DNA of 64,000 nt from NCBI GenBank assembly GCA_000182565.2, contig KQ257453.1; one strand, 5' to 3'. The notes beneath the pieces were generated by a model that was given only the letters and a program-made list of their open reading frames with translations, made no database searches and was not told where the DNA came from. The position numbers and the translations under genes are program-made. Positions 1 through 57,708 of this stretch are shown in pieces (the stretch's first letter is position 1; the number at the start of each line of letters is the position of its first letter). This DNA is from Spizellomyces punctatus DAOM BR117. Its lineage: Eukaryota.

Positions 1-3000
1 TCGGCTTGTGAATAACGTCAGTACCCTATACCAAACATTAGAAACCTCTGAAGATCTTACCTGACAATATCGTCAGGAGTTTGGTAGGCTTTGAGCTCTG
101 CGACATCCTCCTGCGTCAGAAGCGTCCATGTGAGGGGAACCGAAGTCGGAGTCGCATCCTAAAGGAACATTATAAACACTTTCGCTTCAAACCAGCAAAA
201 CGTATCCCGCACCTACCTCCTTTTTGACTTCCTCCCCGAGACCAATCCCACCTCCACCTGGTGTCCCGCCCTTCTTATGCTTTCCAGCAGACTTTGTTCG
301 ACTGCTGCTCGGTCGAGTCGTCGATCTGCGATCGGCACCGGCGCTGGTAGGTGGTGTTCGGCCTGTGGTGCGCTGCGAGGGCGATGATGCGGTTGTGGCA
401 GACATCAAGGAGTATCCAGTCCAAGATCGACCCCGTCTGGGTGGATTAGGCGATGTATTACGTAAGCGCCAGATCCAGATGATCGACAATGCGAGAACAC
501 TTTCCTGGATTTTGGCTACTTATGTATACAGTAGATTAACGACAGTGATGGACGATTCATCCTACAGAGATCCCAAAGTTGGTGGGATGGTCTCAACCGC
601 GAGCCGTCGGATGAGCCTTGTCGGTGTGATGGCCAATACGCGAGCGAGACGGATAAGCTCCATGGGTACTCAACTGGATCCTGCTGCCATGGCTGCTGTT
701 GTCGAGGCGCATAGAGAAAAAAAAATTGACAGTGAAAATGCGTCGGATGATGATATGGATGAGGCGGGTGTGTTGCCTGGGGGCGTTGGAGGTAGGACGC
801 ATTAGTGGAGCTGTGTGGGCGAAGTGTGCTTTCTGAGCAACATGTATCATTATTTAGCAGCATCTAAACGACCTGGCCGCTACGATGCACTTACCGTTCT
901 CCAAAAGGTAACCTCAGACGGCCGAACTGACCGTCCCCGTCGCAGCAGTGACCTCGTAGGGCGCTGGGACACTACCCGTTCCCGTGCCGGTTCCATCGCC
1001 GTTCGCTCACTTGCCCCCGATGATACCTCTGATCCCATCACCACTCGAAAAACACCTACATCTCTCTGGAGCGGAGACGAAACAGCCGATCTCCACCAAT
1101 CCCATACACACCAACATGAGCAACTCACTGTTGATTCTTCTATTGACGACATCCGGGAGTACGGCGCATCTGTGCTTCACCCCGGAAAAGTCCTCGGCGT
1201 TCTTCCTGATGAGTACGACCGAGACGTTTACACCGAGTTTGATGAACTGTGTAACGAGATGCTGACGGTGCTGGGTGAATTTGAGACGGCGCTGGAGGAA
1301 ATGACGATTTGGAAGGACGATTTTTTGAGACAGACTGTGCCTTCCAATATCAAACTACAGCTGACCTTACTGTTTGCAAGATTGTTTCGCAGGTATGTTG
1401 TTATTTTCCTAAATATGTTGTTGAATGAGGGATCTGAAGAACGTAGATCACGTCAGTAAGTCAGAGCTCCATGAACCGGTGTTTGAGTTGGTCAAGCAAG
1501 TACGAGTCTACTCTCGACCATGGCTGGACAAGCGATATGCTCTGGTTGAATTGGAAAAAGACTACCAAAGGTGACATGACATTTACCGTTGACAAGCTGG
1601 CATGGGTCGGATCGACTCAAACCTGTTGGGCGTTTAGACAATGCCACATTATCAATGTCGCAATTCGCAAAATGGAGCAAATGCAATTACAGGTACGATC
1701 TCCAACGTCAATATTAGCTACAGTCGTTGAGCATCATACTGATTGAATGGCAGGTGGAACGCATCCGGAGCGAAAAGCGGGTGGCATTGTGGGAGAGAGT
1801 TACAAAGCGGCTGATGGTTTGTTTATGCGACTATGATTTGGATCGTAGAATCCTTGCCTAACGAAAGCAATACAGGACCTTTTTCCAGATTACGGAGAGC
1901 AATTTGTCACTGTGGAAGTGTAAGAGTCCTGGTCGGAAATGTCTCAGTCGCACCCTTATTCATGTTTATCACTAGTCCGGAAGAATCCGCTACTGAACCT
2001 CCAGACACGGCCAACACTGGAATGTCGTTCCCACAAACCCCTGCAACAGATGTAATGTCCCGTCCGTGGACAACCACGACAGCATCTGGAACCTCTCTAA
2101 ATAGTAGTATATCGAAAAGTCAATTGCGCGGTATATATATCAATGGCATGTTTTTGCTAAAAAGCTCTACTTTGTTTCTAACCTATGGCCTGCATAAAAT
2201 AGCTTCTATTCGTGAATACATAACACAAGATACGCCCACCTGGAGACGCAAAGCAAAGGACTTGGTCAAGCAATTTCAAAGCATCCTGGAGATGCAGCAT
2301 CCTAACCTCATCGCCCTCCTCGGACACTTCCACCGACGTCCGGTTCCAAAACCCGCTCAACCCGTCTATATTTCCTCTCACTCAGGAACAATCATATCCC
2401 GTTCAGCGAAAGTTCCAAACCTCCGTGCATCATGGTCTATGCTTGATCTGCGTCAATTTAGCAAGATGGAAAACGAGGAAGAAGAATCGAAACAGAGGGT
2501 ATTGAAGCGATCAAATAGTTCTGGCGTACTGTTTGCTTTGGGGAAGGATCCCAAGTTACGACGGCCATTGCCGGGTGCTGCTATTGGAAGGAGAGAGAAG
2601 ATCCATTCAGGCGGTCCGGTTCCGCATGGTAGTGGGGCATTCCGCAACGCCGGCTTTGATTCGCCGTCGGAAGAACGTAGAGAGGACACTGAAGCGTCTA
2701 CATTTAGCTTACGGGTACGGTCTTGTGATGCTGGGAGGAATCATGCATTTCATTCACGTATTCTGGTTTTAGTACCTTGATAGCATAGGTGAAGCGGAGA
2801 TGAAGGAAATCATTAATTCGTTCATTGACGAGCATCCCATGAAAATACCTGCTGACGGGTATGCTGAATTGGCACTCTGACTTCAGCTTTCGTTTGCCCG
2901 AGCTCAACATGTTTCCGAATCAGAAACCTAATTGATCAAGATCCGTCAACGAAAGCAAGCATTCATAAAGAAACGTACACTCTCCAAGATGTCATGGAAC

Positions 3001-48484: not shown

Positions 48485-50810
48485 CTATTCTCTCTGCTGC
48501 TTCCCTAGTCGCCTCTTTTCTAGTTTTACCACACGCTTCACAGAAGAGCTAGACTTTGCTACTTCAGCTTCCTCTTTCTTCACCACGTGCCCATCCGCGT
48601 CATATTCATATTCTGGCGGGAGCTTCAGCGTTCCATTGTTTAGCTTCCAAGCCCGGTGTATAATGCGTACTACACCAAACACCACGATGACGAACCCAAT
48701 GGTGTATGACAAGTAGTGCCGTGGATCACTTAGCCGCGTATAGGAGAACATGTCGAGAAGTGGGAGTGGTGGCAGTTGGTCTTTTAGCTCAGTGTCCAGT
48801 TTGGGAGTGTCCTTTTTCCGTAGAGAAGAAGGGCGAGTTCAGTCATGACCACCTTTGAATGGACCATTACGACGGACATCCCCCGGCATACCTTTATCTT
48901 ATCAGGTCCTGCGGAACCATTCGTTTGTTCAGCCACCTTGTCCTCCTTGGCCTGCTTTTGATGCATGGCCCTAAACTCATCCACGGCCGCCACGCTCTCT
49001 GAAAGCCTGTTCAATGTGTTAAACAGAGCTACCACTTCGCCGCGTGTTAATCGGTAGAGCATTGGACTGAATGGAGGGCAAACAGGACATTAGAGGGCAG
49101 AGTCAATAATAAATGTCACGAAATAGCCACATACTTGTCATCATATGAGAAAAGGATCTTTAGGGCGGTTCCTAAGCCTATAAGAGAAAGGATGCTTAGG
49201 CGTGAAAGAAGAGCACAAACGCAATTAGAATTCACGTTGCATACCTGATATTTGCAGCTTTCCCCACAGTCGACATTTCTCGCACCCAACACAATCCATA
49301 ATCTGCGAAATGTTTCTAAAATGCGTCTTAAATTCCTCTTTGAGAAGCATGGATCCCGAATCCACAAAAAGCGTTTTTTCGTCAAACGTCGGTCCACATG
49401 CGACAGCCTTGTCAGCAACTTGTTCAACAAGATCCTAGAACAAAATTCTTTGGTGAGTCTTAATGTGGGAAAAAGTTCTCAAGATGCATATTACCTCAAT
49501 CCTATGCGTATCCGCTCCGCTACCGGTACAGAATTGGTGAACTTGATGGTTTCGCAAGTACGGCGCTAGTTTCGCAACAGCTCGGACCATCATAGTATAT
49601 GTGAAGTATAGGTTCTGAACTCGGTCGGGATGGTTCCCGACTCGATCCGAAAAACATGTGAGATTACGAATCTGTTGGCCAATTGGTTAAGCTGCGTTCT
49701 CATGAACTACTATGATCTTTCGTGGACGTACCCACTCTCCGCTCTTACGATCCAACCATTGATCGCAAATATGCGTTGATATGGATGCATGAAGTCCTGT
49801 CAAAACATAAATGTCAGACACAATAATTGCATGGTGCGTCCACAACGTCTACACATACCCGACAAGAGTCGATAAAAGACCCTCTTTTCCATGCAGGTAT
49901 TTTCAAGTTCCTTTCTTCTATTGGTCAACGTTCCCTCCAGGTTATTTTCAAAGAGGTTGAAACAGTTTTCCCGATATATAGCCCCCCAAATCCGTGCAGC
50001 TGATTCTCCTCCGTATCCAGTGAAGCGCTCCGGGTTCTTGAGGAGATTAATGTAACAGCCCTCTATTAAGGGCAGCCAACGGCAATGGTCAATCGCACTA
50101 CCACGACTCTGGAATTGTTTTGCATCTCCCCTACCAGCGGAAAAATCATCCTCTACCGCACAAAAATCGGCTTCTGACCACTGACAGCTCTTAGACATTA
50201 GGGAAAACCCATTATCTAACGGGGATTGGTCAACTGAGGAGAGAGCGGAGGTCTTCCAGTGTTCGGGAATTTCAGACTATACGATTCCGTCAGCGTGTGA
50301 CGTCCAGCGTAGGAGGACATGCAACTACGTACCTCATCAGCCTCGACAACGGAGCAGTCACGGAGAATGCAAAGTGGATTCTCCTGCCAAAACGGACAAT
50401 CTTTGTGAAGGTTCGTCTGCATCCATCCGCAGAGTTAGTTGTTGTACGTATCCACCCACAGTGCATTTTGAATATATGTATACCTTCCAATATCTAAAAA
50501 ATGAGGTAGTCACCAACTCTGCCAAGAGCGGGGAAAGCTCACTGTTCACTTTCTGGATGGTTCGAAACTCACAGCAGGCATCGCTTATGGGACCTGAAGG
50601 CTGAATGTCCACATGGTAAACAAGAGATCATCTACGATAGATTTATCACATTCTAGCACTTACACTGCAATAGGGTTGCACTTTGTCTTCCAATGAGGCC
50701 GATAGTTGGTCAATTTCGCGCGATATATCCGACTTGACTGAAGTCAGTGCCAACGGTATACACGCAAGAACTGCGGTCAAGGTCCAGGCAGTAGCTGTTC
50801 GAAGTAACAT
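48485..50810 (-). CDS. ERO1: ER oxidoreductin 1, multi-exon, with a signal peptide and a C-terminal hydrophobic segment
   Basis: FFRYWK, CPFW...[65 protein letters not shown] and [19 protein letters not shown]. Confidence 0.95.
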
Positions 50811-51194: not shown

Positions 51195-52739
51195 ATGAAG
51201 AGATTTATCGTTACGATACAGATACTTTGGCTGTTCTCGATTTTGGCGGTTGATGCCCAGCGCAACAGGGACAAGGTCCTATTACGCGAAGTACAGGTTT
51301 GTAAACAAGAGTCGTGCTCTTGAAATATGGTGTGCGCTAACAAAAGTGGTTGTAGGTGTTGACTTTATACAAGGGACAATACACGACTGGAAGACGTTCC
51401 AATCCCGTTCCGCAGATTAAGTGCGTTGGTGGAAATGCGTGCAGGGATATCCAGCCTGAAGTTATTCAATGTCGACAGGTGAGCTCTTTCATGGACAATA
51501 GAAGCCATTTGGAGATGTCTGCAAGGTCAAAAAGGATCGTTGGGCGATGCAACTGGGCGCAAAACGATATTGGTGTGCTAACCCATCCATGATACTTTTT
51601 CTACGGTGTCAAGGTTGGATGGGATGGCCGAGAAGCTCAGTGGGAGTGCAAAGCGGAACTGGAAGACATGTACAGGCTTGGCAAAACCATTGTAAACTGC
51701 GAAGGGTATGATTATCCGGATGACCCATACATTCTTGCTGGTAGGAAGACGTATCCGATTTGATATCTGAAAACCATCGTATTTGACCATGTTTTCTCTT
51801 TAGGATCGTGCGGCGTCGAATACGACCTGCATCGGACGGCAAAATACCGGGCTCAAACCGGTACCAATCACCGACAGGATCAGACCGCTCCTCCGCCGCT
51901 ATTTACGGGAGGGCTACTCTCATGGCTGCTCAACAGCTCTCTGACATCCTGGATAACAAACAACCCGCTCACATCGTGGGTCCATCGCTTCCCGTTCTCG
52001 ATCTTGTTTGGTTCGTCGAGCTCTTCTTTTCGTCGAGAAGATTGTGAGTTTGATATGTACGCAGTCGATGACAGCTCTCGGCCAAAGGTGGAAAAAGCGT
52101 ATTGATGGAAATTGTGGGTTTGTAGCCTCTTTCGGACATTCTACAATTACGGGCTGGAACATGGCGCACGTCGTTTGGTATATTGTATTAGGGCTCTTTA
52201 TTTATAGGTGAGACAATCAAGACGTGTTGCTGTTATGGTGATAAGATTGCTAAAGTCTGTTATTGACAGTGTGTTGAAATCATGTTTGGGTGGCGGAAGT
52301 CGGAGCGGGTCTGGTAGGAGTTCGCAGAGTACCTATGGTGATGGTCCGGGAGGAGGATCGGGTGGGGGTGGTGGAGGTGGTCCTTCGGGTAGGTTGCTAA
52401 AGGTTACTGTATCACCTCCATATGTAATATCAATGCTTTGTTATAGCGCCGCCATACGAGCCTCCGCCGCCTTATTCACCGCAATCTGACAATAGCGCGC
52501 ACTCTACGAACCGTCCAGGTTTCTGGTCTGGTTTAGGACTTGGCGGACTGCTCGGTTCGAGAATGTCGGCGAATCGAAACTATTCAAGAACAAGATACCC
52601 AAATGCTTATGATGAGCCGACTTCATCCTCTTCTTCTTCTCCTTCTTCGTCTTCATGGTCTCGCCCTTCGACATCGTCTTCATCGTCGTCCTCACAGCGG
52701 CGAACGACTACTGGATATGGGGGAACTAAAAGGCGATAA
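51195..52739 (+). CDS. SARAF: SARAF/TMEM66 (DUF1183) single-pass membrane protein, multi-exon
   Basis: Signal peptide, KVLLREVQVLTLYKGQYTTGRRSNPVPQIKCVGG, QWECKA, VNCEGYDYPDDPYILAGSCGVEY, GFWSGLGLGG and the terminal TGYGGTKRR*. Confidence 0.92.
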
Positions 52740-55463: not shown

Positions 55464-55502
55464 CAAGCAAAGCAAGCAGCAAGCAAGCAGCAAGCAAGCA
55501 AG
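55464..55502. repeat. Imperfect (CAAG)n tetranucleotide repeat upstream of the SET gene
   Basis: caagcaaagcaagcagcaagcaagcagcaagcaagcaag. Confidence 0.8.
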
Positions 55503-55786
55503 TGTGCAAACATTGTGTATTGCCAAATAACAAACAATACAAGAATCCATTCCCAAAACAACTTAAAACACTATATATCACGTGGATACCTATTAATTGG
55601 CCGCTCGATTGGAACGGAGCAAGTTTAAGGTTGTGCCACTTTACCGCTTTCTTTGAACGCCCCATCGTTTTATAAAAGTTGTTTAATGTGGTTTTTTCTT
55701 TATAAAAAGGACTTCTACTCCCCCCCCCCTCGCCTTTTAACGAACCCACAAGCGTTCAACTTGCAAAACAAAAAACGTACGCAAAC

Positions 55787-56575
55787 ATGGGCAAGGCTTT
55801 CAACACTCCCATCCCGCAGAAACCGTCGTCCTCAGTCTTTTCCATCTCAAAGCTCGCCTATGTGGCATGTTTCCTGGGTGGTCTTCTTCTTGGATGTCAA
55901 CAATACAACAAGTTTACGCAACAACAGCAAGAATCCTTGCAAGAAGTAGTAAAACCTGTTGCGCAGGTGGACGCTTGGGACACTCGGCGGTACTACCCAG
56001 AAGACTTTGAAAAGCACTTTGGGCTGCGCTTGATCCATCAGCTCGAGGTACCAGACTCCCTCAAAAAGTACGTGGATGCCCACGATATCCGCAAGGACCC
56101 TACCTACTCTCAGAATATTGAACTCAGCGAAGCGTACGCTCGCGTCTATGGTCCTTTCCTCGACCACGTTCACGACGATGATCGTAGGATTTACGTGAAA
56201 TGGGCCGGTCCAGAGAAGCACTTTGGTGTCTTTGCCGACACTTACCTTCCTCCCAACGCCTTTATTGCAGAATACTCTGGGATCTTGACGAATTCCTCGT
56301 TTTCCACTGATTACGAATGGGATTACTACAGTCACGATATCGTGGACGACAATGGAAACGTCCTCAAATTGGGTGTCGATTCCCAACTGGTTGGCAACAT
56401 TGCCCGGTTCGTGAATCACGACGATGATCCAAACTGTGGCATCGTCTACGTGCCTTGGAGGAACAGGTGGAGGTTGGTGTACGTTGCCAACAAGGCCATT
56501 TTCCCTGGCGAAGAGTTGAGTATTTCCTATGGACCTAATTACTGGGAGTCGCGCTCGGAGGTAGTCAAGGTTTAG
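55787..56575 (+). CDS. SET-domain methyltransferase with an N-terminal hydrophobic anchor, intronless, 262 aa
   Basis: SET motifs HFGVFA, FIAEYSGIL, GNIARFVNHDDDPN and GEELSISYGPNYW. Hydrophobic stretch LAYVACFLGGLLLGC at about residues 23-37. No Cys-rich pre- or post-SET region. Confidence 0.9.
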   Translation: MGKAFNTPIPQKPSSSVFSISKLAYVACFLGGLLLGCQQYNKFTQQQQESLQEVVKPVAQVDAWDTRRYYPEDFEKHFGLRLIHQLEVPDSLKKYVDAHDIRKDPTYSQNIELSEAYARVYGPFLDHVHDDDRRIYVKWAGPEKHFGVFADTYLPPNAFIAEYSGILTNSSFSTDYEWDYYSHDIVDDNGNVLKLGVDSQLVGNIARFVNHDDDPNCGIVYVPWRNRWRLVYVANKAIFPGEELSISYGPNYWESRSEVVKV

Positions 56576-57237
56576 ATGATGGGCTTTTTTTTTTGTAGAG
56601 AAAATATGGGGACATTAACAAGAGAGACTGTATAGGTAGTTTATGTTTTTTAGCTACATCCTCTCTGTGTGTATTGTACATTTGCTCGTATATTGTATAG
56701 GATCCTGCACATAGGAGAAACTTTTTGTTTACGCAATTTGATGGCCATTGTCGCCAAGATTTCAAACAGTGCAATTGAATTTTGAGCTTGCAATGTTCAT
56801 GTCCCCAGTTGGTGCTCAACCCGAAAGAGCGGCTTTTGTCAAAAAAGTTGTCTTGATAGATCGCAAGCTGAAAATCATTTTGCTGGATTTTGGTGACTTT
56901 AGAGCTCATCTTTTGCAAATGATGTCGACCATCTCTTGGTTGCAAGTTATGACCTTGTCAGTTACATGTCACTATAATCATTCATGTGAAAGTATTTACG
57001 CTCTCTTGCATATGCCCTAGTTTTCTAAACACGCACTGGCAGGGCTTACTTTCGCGTCTGCCCACTCATTGATCTCGATCATTAGGCCCTGCCCGTTCAA
57101 TGTCGTTCTCGATATGTCGTTCTCGCAAAACATTTAAAAAGATTGACAATTTCCCCTTGGTCCCTCTCTTCATCCTTTGCACGTAAATTCACACCAGTAC
57201 AATAATCTTCCCTTCTACGCTGATCATCCCATCCAAC

Positions 57238-57708
57238 ATGCAAATCACCAGTTTCCTTGCATTGGCCATCTCTCTGGCTGCTCTAGGAGTCGTAAAAGCG
57301 GTTCCAGCTCCCCAAGGCGACAACATCATTTCACAAATTGCCTCGGCGATTGCCACCCTCGAAGCTGGATTCACGGCCACCACCACCACCGTTGCAGCAA
57401 CGACCGTCGCAACGACTCTGGCCGATGTTGGCACGAAAACTGTTTCTCCAGCAACCATCGCACCCGTCCTTCCTTCTCCAAGTGGTGCCCCCGTTCTCCC
57501 TCCCATCTGCCGTCGAGCCGGATGCAACGGTGAACTATGCGTTACCAACTCTCGTGATGCCGTCTTGACGCCCTGCGTTTGGCGGCCGGAATTTGCATGC
57601 TATGCCACCGCACAGTGCGGTTACAATGCGACGAGGAGGGCATGCGCGTGGAGGCAAACCAAGTCCCTCAAGGAATGTCTGTCAAATGGTACTACGGCTA
57701 CACTGTGA
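57238..57708 (+). CDS. Secreted protein: signal peptide, Thr/Pro-rich stalk and a C-terminal eight-cysteine domain; intronless, 156 aa
   Basis: MQITSFLALAISLAALGVVKA signal; CRRAGCNGELC...PCVWRPEFACYATAQC...ACAWRQTKSLKECL contains 8 Cys. Confidence 0.85.
   Translation: MQITSFLALAISLAALGVVKAVPAPQGDNIISQIASAIATLEAGFTATTTTVAATTVATTLADVGTKTVSPATIAPVLPSPSGAPVLPPICRRAGCNGELCVTNSRDAVLTPCVWRPEFACYATAQCGYNATRRACAWRQTKSLKECLSNGTTATL

Follow-up and report, generated by a model that had tools for sequence, protein, structure and literature searches.

Does a SET-domain lysine methyltransferase that is apparently carried on a single membrane helix work, in a fungus, somewhere other than on chromatin, and if so, how did the fungus come by it? 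The question is raised by a short gene at positions 55787..56575 (+) of a 64,000-nucleotide stretch of DNA (the window) from contig KQ257453.1 of the chytrid Spizellomyces punctatus DAOM BR117 (GenBank assembly GCA_000182565.2), for which an earlier note, made from the letters of the sequence, had proposed a membrane-anchored, bacterial-type and horizontally acquired enzyme. Known SET enzymes are typically soluble proteins of the nucleus, cytosol or plastid or, in bacteria, effectors delivered into hosts. Our judgement comes down, if not heavily, on the side of a chytrid gene for a single-pass, N-terminally anchored SET methyltransferase of type II topology, with a catalytic domain that would face the lumen or the cell exterior and act on lysines of non-histone proteins, and with an old transfer between bacteria and chytrids in its past; membrane insertion, orientation, substrate class and family origin are all matters that we infer. 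On such a reading the hydrophobic helix would insert the protein at the endoplasmic reticulum (ER) as an uncleaved type II signal anchor, the N-terminal tail would remain cytosolic, and a stem would present the catalytic module (a helical N-flank, here called nSET, followed by the SET domain) to the lumen of the secretory pathway or at the cell surface, where it would methylate lysines of proteins other than histones, whether lumenal, secreted or at the surface, with S-adenosylmethionine (SAM) as the methyl donor; the catalytic domain may also be shed.

The gene itself is plain to see. Its coding sequence is a complete, intronless frame running from ATG to TAG at 55787..56575 (+), comprising 262 codons plus the stop and giving a protein of 262 aa, and no in-frame ATG was found further upstream in the open frame, which starts at 55706. 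In one run of raw RNA reads, coverage of the + strand has a strong 3′ bias and begins at about 55750, no splice joints occur over the gene, and loose poly(A) ends at about 56720 and about 56768 (+ strand), together with a fall in read depth beyond 56781, delimit a 3′ untranslated region at 56576..56768 (+) with two poly(A) addition sites. Two RNA contigs from root metagenome libraries are colinear with the DNA at 55909-56566 and 55787-56052. Since the RNA is colinear and free of joints and carries loose poly(A) ends, the gene is transcribed, polyadenylated and unspliced. It is thus intronless, as had been proposed, and the differently spliced N-terminus that the earlier note had named as speaking against its own reading did not appear in that run (in which the depth over the 5′ third is about 1). 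Near-identical pieces of the gene occur in the root-associated RNA libraries X1, X2, X3 and X5, with 0 differences from the window gene over 658 nt in X1 and 2 differences in X2, implying that this organism or a close strain was present in root-associated samples.

What the protein would catalyse is suggested by its SET core, at residues 146-249 (56222..56533 (+)), which matches Pfam PF00856 with E 1.4e-18 and 67.7 bits against a cut-off of 22.4. In SET enzymes the GxG, YxG and RFxNH motifs serve SAM binding and catalysis, and ELxxxY holds the catalytic tyrosine; the corresponding elements here are GVFA (G147), EYSG (Y163, G165), GNIARFVNH (N204-H211, with RFVNH at residues 207-211) and ELSISYG (residues 243-249, with Y248). 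G147, Y163, G165, N204, R207, F208, N210, H211, Y248, G249, Y252 and W253 predominate in every group of the family described below. The core is followed by a short C-flank without Cys (PNYWESR..., residues 250-262; 56534..56572 (+)), recognisable by its conservation: Y252, W253 and R256 are invariant in five aligned chytrid sequences and predominant throughout the family, and the YW..R that follows the catalytic Tyr occupies the post-SET position of other SET classes. The whole protein holds 3 Cys (C28, C37, C217), none of them in residues 63-145 or 250-262, and it therefore lacks Cys-rich pre-SET and post-SET zinc clusters; a Pfam scan of the protein revealed no chromatin-reader domain, DNA-binding domain or zinc cluster. 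The earlier description of a compact SET domain with RFVNH and ELSISYG intact and no Cys-rich flanks is thereby borne out, and from its intact motifs the protein would be expected to be an active SAM-dependent lysine methyltransferase, operating as do the other compact SET enzymes that lack zinc.

Ahead of the core lies a family-specific helical N-flank, the nSET segment, at residues 63-145 (55973..56221 (+)), over which no Pfam model was found to match; it is delimited by high model confidence, by alignment with bacterial relatives and by superposition on ATXR5. An AlphaFold2 (AF2) model built on a 150-sequence alignment has a mean pLDDT of 88.3, rising above 95 over residues 63-258, and places helices at 71-78, 90-98, 105-109 and 111-126 of the nSET segment before the SET beta-structure. 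As modelled, this is an ordinary SET fold to which a helical N-flank is added. The top solved matches by Foldseek are G9a, SETD2 and ATXR5, at E of about 1e-10, and a search independent of Foldseek gave ATXR5 (4o30, Z 15.6), NSD2 (15.5), SETD2 (15.0), Set2 and G9a (14.0); 43 solved chains reach a Z of at least 8, and nearly all of those listed are SET or PR domains. The superposition on ATXR5 4o30 takes in 184 residues over model residues 66-262, N-flank included.

Likeness of fold is one thing and membership of a family another. ATXR5/6, NSD/SETD2 and G9a/GLP provide the best structural matches and have the same catalytic motifs, but in sequence they resemble only residues 146-258, at no more than 47 bits (the best solved eukaryotic SET protein by sequence is EHMT1, with 47 bits and E 2e-11 over that range), and they are soluble nuclear enzymes, whereas the window protein has a candidate membrane segment at its N-terminus. 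No AWS, pre-SET or post-SET Cys cluster, PHD finger or other chromatin module was found in it. ATXR5/6 are defined by a PHD finger and a PIP box that precede the nSET-SET module; Pfam gives no PHD match here, and it is the nSET-SET module alone that superposes on ATXR5. The Legionella effector RomA/LegAS4, which the earlier note had cited beside NUE as methylating host histones, is not a close match: the NCBIfam model NF043024 scores 25.1 bits on the window protein against a cut-off of 550, and Pfam finds no ankyrin repeats of the kind that RomA/LegAS4 has. LegAS4 (8swi) does superpose on the model, at Z 12.2 with 131 residues aligned, and the Legionella relatives, unlike the closer bacterial ones, match only the SET core (residues 130-259) and served as the outgroup of our trees. 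Lacking these defining features, the protein falls outside the SUV39/G9a, ATXR5/6 and RomA/LegAS4 groups. By score it does not group with ordinary eukaryotic SET enzymes, a grouping with them being what the earlier note had listed as telling against its reading, and since solved eukaryotic SETs do not exceed 47 bits over residues 146-258 and its relatives align right through the helical flank, the protein belongs, on its sequence, to a separate family in which the helical extension 63-145 is fused to a SET core.

That family is a large one. An exhaustive search of 1.84 billion representative sequences gave 1611 matches at E<=1e-3, of which 314 reach <=1e-10 and 31 reach <=1e-30; among the 150 best, the alignment mostly spans residues from about 65 to 258, helical flank included. 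A word-indexed search found four close named relatives, all of them Spizellomycetales (from Phlyctochytrium, Spizellomyces, Thoreauomyces and Geranomyces, at 45-57% identity), and a profile search added Cladochytrium tenue, so that the named members are 5 Spizellomycetales and Cladochytrium tenue. Two patterns taken from the 5-sequence chytrid alignment were also scanned against one genome per prokaryotic species, which gave 80 loci. Three of these (L001-L003) are full-length bacterial relatives in ordinary bacterial gene contexts: L001, from a metagenome-assembled genome (MAG) of the Bacteriovoracaceae, is 41% identical over residues 33-259 (tblastn E 9e-53), and L002 and L003, from MAGs of 0.8-0.9 Mb, are 30-32% identical over residues 60/66-259 (tblastn E 3e-26 and 2e-22). 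The other 77 loci, from Acidobacteriota, Hyphomicrobium, Legionella and others, match in the SET core only. As the two patterns occur in only 12 of the 147 full-length family rows, the scan undercounts bacterial members, and for the same reason the absence of Chlamydiota from its 80 loci is uninformative.

Sampling of further genomes found the gene in 4 of 401 from the phylum of the Bacteriovoracaceae MAG and in 46 of 261 from the phylum of the small MAGs, there in 1-3 copies each. The latter phylum is probably Dependentiae, because one named relative, from a ‘Candidatus Babeliales bacterium’, is 70% identical to one of its sequences. Dependentiae are obligate intracellular bacteria of protists. 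A comparison of the chytrid profile with that of Dependentiae gave a probability of 100 and E 2.7e-39 over 189 columns (query residues 65-262). The earlier description of the enzyme as bacterial-type thus appears sound, the bacterial relatives matching through residues 60/66-259 (33-259 for L001) and EHMT1 only through 146-258. Both the Dependentiae and the Bacteriovoracaceae proteins are homologous to the window protein across the catalytic module, helical N-flank included, and have the same catalytic residues. Residue 243 is Glu in the chytrid sequences and their nearest allies (the crown clade of the trees described below) and in the Bacteriovoracaceae-type proteins, and Gln in Dependentiae and Legionella. 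No family members were found in viral contigs, where there were 2 weak matches to the SET core (the best fold match in BFVD being a Bodo saltans virus methyltransferase, at 19% identity). Among the at least 60 loci listed when metagenome contigs were scanned with the crown alignment, all were SET-core-only matches at 26-45% identity and none was a family member.

A few members and gene contexts deserve separate mention. P0070 (4152 aa) matches in 5 stretches and P0026 (521 aa) in 3, and P0024 (1007 aa) has its hydrophobic segment at residue 733, directly before the SET module; these may be multi-domain or tandem proteins. In the 0.9-Mb MAG of L002, the SET gene has as its neighbour (2209-2814 (-)) a gene for a signal-peptide protein with eukaryote-like C2H2 zinc fingers, and eukaryote-like proteins of that kind are typical of host-dwelling intracellular bacteria. 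In the Bacteriovoracaceae MAG of L001 the SET gene adjoins one with a long collagen-like GKDG repeat (179-1171 (-)), with a gene resembling that for an anaerobic ribonucleotide reductase downstream.

It is the region ahead of the catalytic module that makes the protein unusual. The N-terminal tail (residues 1-21; 55787..55849 (+)) contains 3 Lys, is rich in Ser and Pro, has a pLDDT of about 47-54 and is predicted from the charges flanking the helix to be cytosolic. It is followed by a hydrophobic segment, KLAYVACFLGGLLLGC, at residues 22-37 (55850..55897 (+)), a candidate signal anchor or transmembrane helix, with a mean Kyte-Doolittle (KD) hydropathy of 1.89 over 19 residues (17-35) and 2.14 over 15 residues (23-37); the best 19-residue stretch beyond the first 60 residues reaches a KD of only 0.70. 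In the AF2 model residues 1-20 are disordered, one continuous helix runs from 21 to 49, and a low-confidence linker then extends to about residue 62, so that the short N-tail and single hydrophobic helix of the earlier note can be recognised in the model as well as in the hydropathy. The stem or linker (residues 38-62; 55898..55972 (+)) has a pLDDT of 58-67 at residues 41-60 and is variable among orthologues. It had been described as Gln-rich, which is true of the window protein (QQYNKFTQQQQESLQ), but the Gln-rich stretch has no counterpart in the aligned chytrid orthologues.

The hydrophobic stretch, in contrast, has been kept by each of the 5 aligned chytrid orthologues amid diverging sequence, which answers the earlier note's call for homologues with the same anchor in other chytrids. 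In the family at large, 83 of the 147 full-length rows have an N-terminal stretch with KD>=1.6, which lends weight to the reading of the protein as membrane-anchored; a further 22 reach 1.2-1.6, and 14 begin too near the domain to hold a hydrophobic segment. Where Dependentiae have the segment, as many do, it lies at the extreme N-terminus (median N-tail 5.5 aa) and is often signal-peptide-like, some of these N-termini closing with ...ANA, ...HAE or the like; it is missing from one Dependentiae subclade of 17 rows and from every protein of the Bacteriovoracaceae type. Crown members have a median N-tail of 24 aa, which is too long for a typical cleaved signal peptide, and many of them begin with 40-100 residues of low-complexity sequence rich in Ala, Ser, Pro and Thr, after which come the helix, a stem (sometimes coiled-coil-like) and the domain. 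On this evidence the N-terminal hydrophobic segment looks like a family-wide trait, signal-peptide-like in Dependentiae and signal-anchor-like in the crown. Dependentiae proteins thus resemble the window protein in often beginning with a putative export segment, and differ from it in the shortness of that segment's N-tail, in Gln243 and in lying outside the chytrid clade; the Bacteriovoracaceae type shares Glu243 but differs in having no hydrophobic segment.

Two other readings of the N-terminus were considered. The segment ends in LLGC, which had been noted as resembling a lipobox; the Cys is indeed present in the window protein and in Phlyctochytrium, but it is Ser in 3 of the 5 aligned chytrids, and a lipobox reading was rejected on the grounds that Cys is found in only 2 of the 5 (lipoboxes are processed by a bacterial pathway). 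The Met-Gly start brought N-myristoylation into question, but only 3 of the 5 aligned chytrids have Gly2, and the idea was set aside.

If the segment does lie in a membrane, the next question is which way round. In the window protein the flanking net charge is +2 on the N-side and 0 on the C-side, and among 64 non-bacterial crown rows with the segment, 42 are more positive on its N-side and 12 on its C-side, while 10 show no difference; this charge bias favours a type II topology (N-in, C-out). The type II enzymes of the Golgi and ER, such as glycosyltransferases, offer an obvious parallel, with a short tail (cytosolic in those enzymes and predicted to be so here), one helix, a variable stem, a globular catalytic domain and the same charge bias; the window protein differs from them in that its catalytic domain is a SET methyltransferase, and its layout is read from sequence and model. 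Also relevant is an N-x-S/T sequon (N-S-S) at residues 169-171 (56291-56299), inside the SET module, which 39 of 102 crown rows have, as against 1 of 10 rows of the Bacteriovoracaceae type and none of the 84 others (among them all 41 Dependentiae); this may be an N-glycosylation site if the domain is lumenal, although it is a hint only and could mirror phylogeny.

The alternative that has most to be said for it turns the anchor round: the helix would hold the SET domain in the cytosol or nucleoplasm, at the surface of the ER, the nuclear envelope or the outer membrane of mitochondria, and the substrates would be cytosolic or membrane-proximal, possibly including chromatin at the nuclear periphery. 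We regard this as unlikely, but as an alternative to be taken seriously. SAM and all known SET substrates are cytosolic or nuclear, the domain contains one Cys and no conserved disulfide, and the gene model from Thoreauomyces opens directly with the helix, as N-out anchors do. The rows just mentioned in which the C-flank is more positive, or the flanks are neutral, would also sit comfortably with such an arrangement. The bias in the window protein itself and in 42 of the 64 crown rows runs the other way, however, and many relatives have N-tails of 40-100 residues before the helix, which are rarely translocated.

A second alternative, that the segment is a cleaved signal peptide and the product a soluble secreted or lumenal enzyme acting on the cell wall, the cell surface or other organisms, seems to us distinctly improbable. 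In the 5 aligned chytrids small residues do close the helix and Gln or His comes next (G-[SC]-[QH]), and the short N-termini of Dependentiae, with their ...ANA or ...HAE endings, would suit such a reading. The n-region, however, is 21 residues long here (crown median 24), the window protein has Leu at position -3, and the AF2 helix (21-49) runs straight through the putative cleavage site.

The origin of the gene was approached through trees calculated on residues 63-258, omitting fragments that cover less than 72-75% of the module, P0070 and duplicates of L001-L003; the 98-row and 52-row trees used a hand-picked subsample of each clade. In a FastTree phylogeny of 196 rows rooted on Legionella, the 41 sequences from Dependentiae genomes, without exception, form an outer grade together with 38 unnamed rows, and a crown of 112 rows (support 93) contains both chytrid groups and the Bacteriovoracaceae-type clade but not one of the 41 Dependentiae sequences. 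The polarity was no different when minimal bacterial SET proteins served as the root. The crown was recovered with SH-aLRT 96 by IQ-TREE (LG+C20 PMSF, 98 rows) and with 98/96 in a careful search of 52 rows, in which the Spizellomycetales clade had 100/100. A sister relationship of Spizellomycetales and Bacteriovoracaceae, at 86 in the FastTree phylogeny, was dropped, being absent from the quick IQ-TREE analysis and loose in the careful tree. We read the crown as mainly eukaryotic on account of its N-tail/helix/stem layout and of the six named chytrid proteins that fall in two of its subclades.

Horizontal acquisition, which the earlier note had proposed, is therefore upheld in part: bacteria form the outer grade and the chytrid sequences are derived, but the direction is a matter of inference only, and any transfer would have to be old. 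With bacteria outside and chytrids derived under all-bacterial outgroups, a bacterial origin is somewhat favoured, which falls short of proof. As to age, the GC content of the gene is 0.499 against 0.47-0.58 in the other long frames of the window, and its GC3 of 0.597 is the highest, the others (leaving aside the opposite-strand frame over the gene) having 0.42-0.55; its composition is host-like, and the GC3 value, highest or not, is not foreign-looking. Because of this composition and because the gene is common to several genera of Spizellomycetales, any transfer must be an old one, and most likely it was in the distant past that the family passed between bacteria and early chytrid-like hosts.

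These data bear directly on the more specific suggestion that the gene was acquired recently and directly from a Chlamydia NUE-type effector, which we consider very improbable. Chlamydia trachomatis NUE (CT737), like RomA/LegAS4, is a compact bacterial SET protein, and the window protein, too, is without zinc-cysteine flanks; NUE and RomA/LegAS4 both belong to bacteria living inside eukaryotic cells. In a language-model look-up, moreover, the three nearest clusters were SET proteins of Chlamydiota, at 0.93, and with a second family member Chlamydiota clusters came up at 0.90 (oomycete and diatom clusters being named too). However, the three clusters share 157-164 features with the query, under the 170 typical of same-family matches, the gene is common to genera of Spizellomycetales at 45-57% identity and host-like in composition, and the bacterial relatives actually recovered come from the phylum that is probably Dependentiae and from Bacteriovoracaceae. 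NUE is, furthermore, a nuclear effector that leaves the bacterium by type III secretion and methylates histones (PMC2904774), and the word ‘transmembrane’ is absent from the text of that article. The window gene, in contrast to the gene of a bacterial secreted effector, is chromosomal in a chytrid and gives a poly(A) transcript, the comparison with NUE being one of descriptions only. As for an ordinary soluble nuclear histone methyltransferase with a hydrophobic stretch of no targeting role, the fold does resemble that of histone methyltransferases and row P0007, of the same clade, is without the segment, but retention of the segment amid diverging flanks, its recurrence in 83 of 147 family rows and the outcome of the domain scans make this the least credible of the alternatives, and one that we would scarcely entertain.

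It must be remembered, all the same, that a number of points weigh against a type II, lumen- or exterior-facing enzyme of bacterial ancestry. No lumenal SET enzyme is known, and one would call for SAM in the lumen of a chytrid organelle, where none is known to be supplied. The basis for the topology is hydropathy and a crude charge count, with the opposite bias in 12 of the 64 crown rows, and P0007, which lies within the Spizellomycetales clade, has no hydrophobic segment. The domain holds one Cys and no conserved pair that could form a disulfide, an unusual state of affairs for a lumenal domain. RNA coverage of the 5′ end is thin, and a depth of only about 1 over the 5′ third leaves room for a rare alternative 5′ exon. 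As regards ancestry, the Bacteriovoracaceae-type clade is nested within the crown in the 52-row tree (93/82); placing it outside the crown is not rejected by the AU test (p 0.658), and a tree so constrained was 8.4 log-likelihood units better than the free search. The eukaryotic nature of the crown rests on 6 named chytrid proteins in two subclades, together with the composition of the N-tails, and the trees contain no canonical eukaryotic SET or chlamydial sequences, so that neither the root nor the direction of transfer is fixed by them.

What appears to be new here is, to judge from the alignments, a large family that joins a putative export or anchor segment to a SET module and is common to chytrids and to intracellular or predatory bacteria. 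Full-text searches outside the subscription journals found no description of membrane-anchored or lumenal SET enzymes or of such a family, and the one article found to bring up both SET domains and Dependentiae (PMC10117894) has the latter in a DOT1 tree and not in a tree of SET proteins. The family is uncharacterised, and most of its members would have a SET module coupled to a segment for membrane insertion or export; should the domain face the lumen or the cell exterior, lysine methylation would gain a place in the secretory pathway, which would raise questions as to the substrates, the delivery of SAM and the shedding of the enzyme. Were this true, it would be the first SET-catalysed lysine methylation of lumenal, surface or extracellular proteins. 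The nearest identifiable relatives outside the chytrids are bacteria that dwell inside or prey on other cells, and the membrane anchor, taken together with such relatives, implies that the enzyme may methylate proteins away from chromatin. The family would tie chytrids to obligate intracellular bacteria of protists and offer a concrete case for gene exchange between early-diverging fungi and their bacterial associates. A broader proposal, which we put forward tentatively and would not ourselves bet on, is that chytrids and probably other microbial eukaryotes possess a SET family working in the secretory pathway or outside the cell, descended from captured exported SET proteins of intracellular bacteria (Dependentiae- or Chlamydia-like) to which a type II anchor was added.

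The surroundings of the gene are, as the earlier note stated, intron-rich. Upstream, a SARAF-like gene is split over two frames at 51764-52105 and 52428-52739 (+), with E 2.3e-14 and 9e-4, and a fragment of ERO1 lies at 49800-50276 (-), with E 1.2e-28; both are ER proteins and both genes are intron-split, and their adjacency to the SET gene is probably a coincidence. A simple repeat of the (AGCA/AAGC)n type occurs at 55464-55506, some 300 nt 5′ of the start codon. Just downstream, at 57238-57708 (+), is an open reading frame of 156 aa for which no Pfam match was found; its product opens in the manner of a signal peptide (MQITSFLALAISLAALGVVKA), is rich in Thr, Ala and Val in the middle and in Cys at the end, and may be a small secreted protein.

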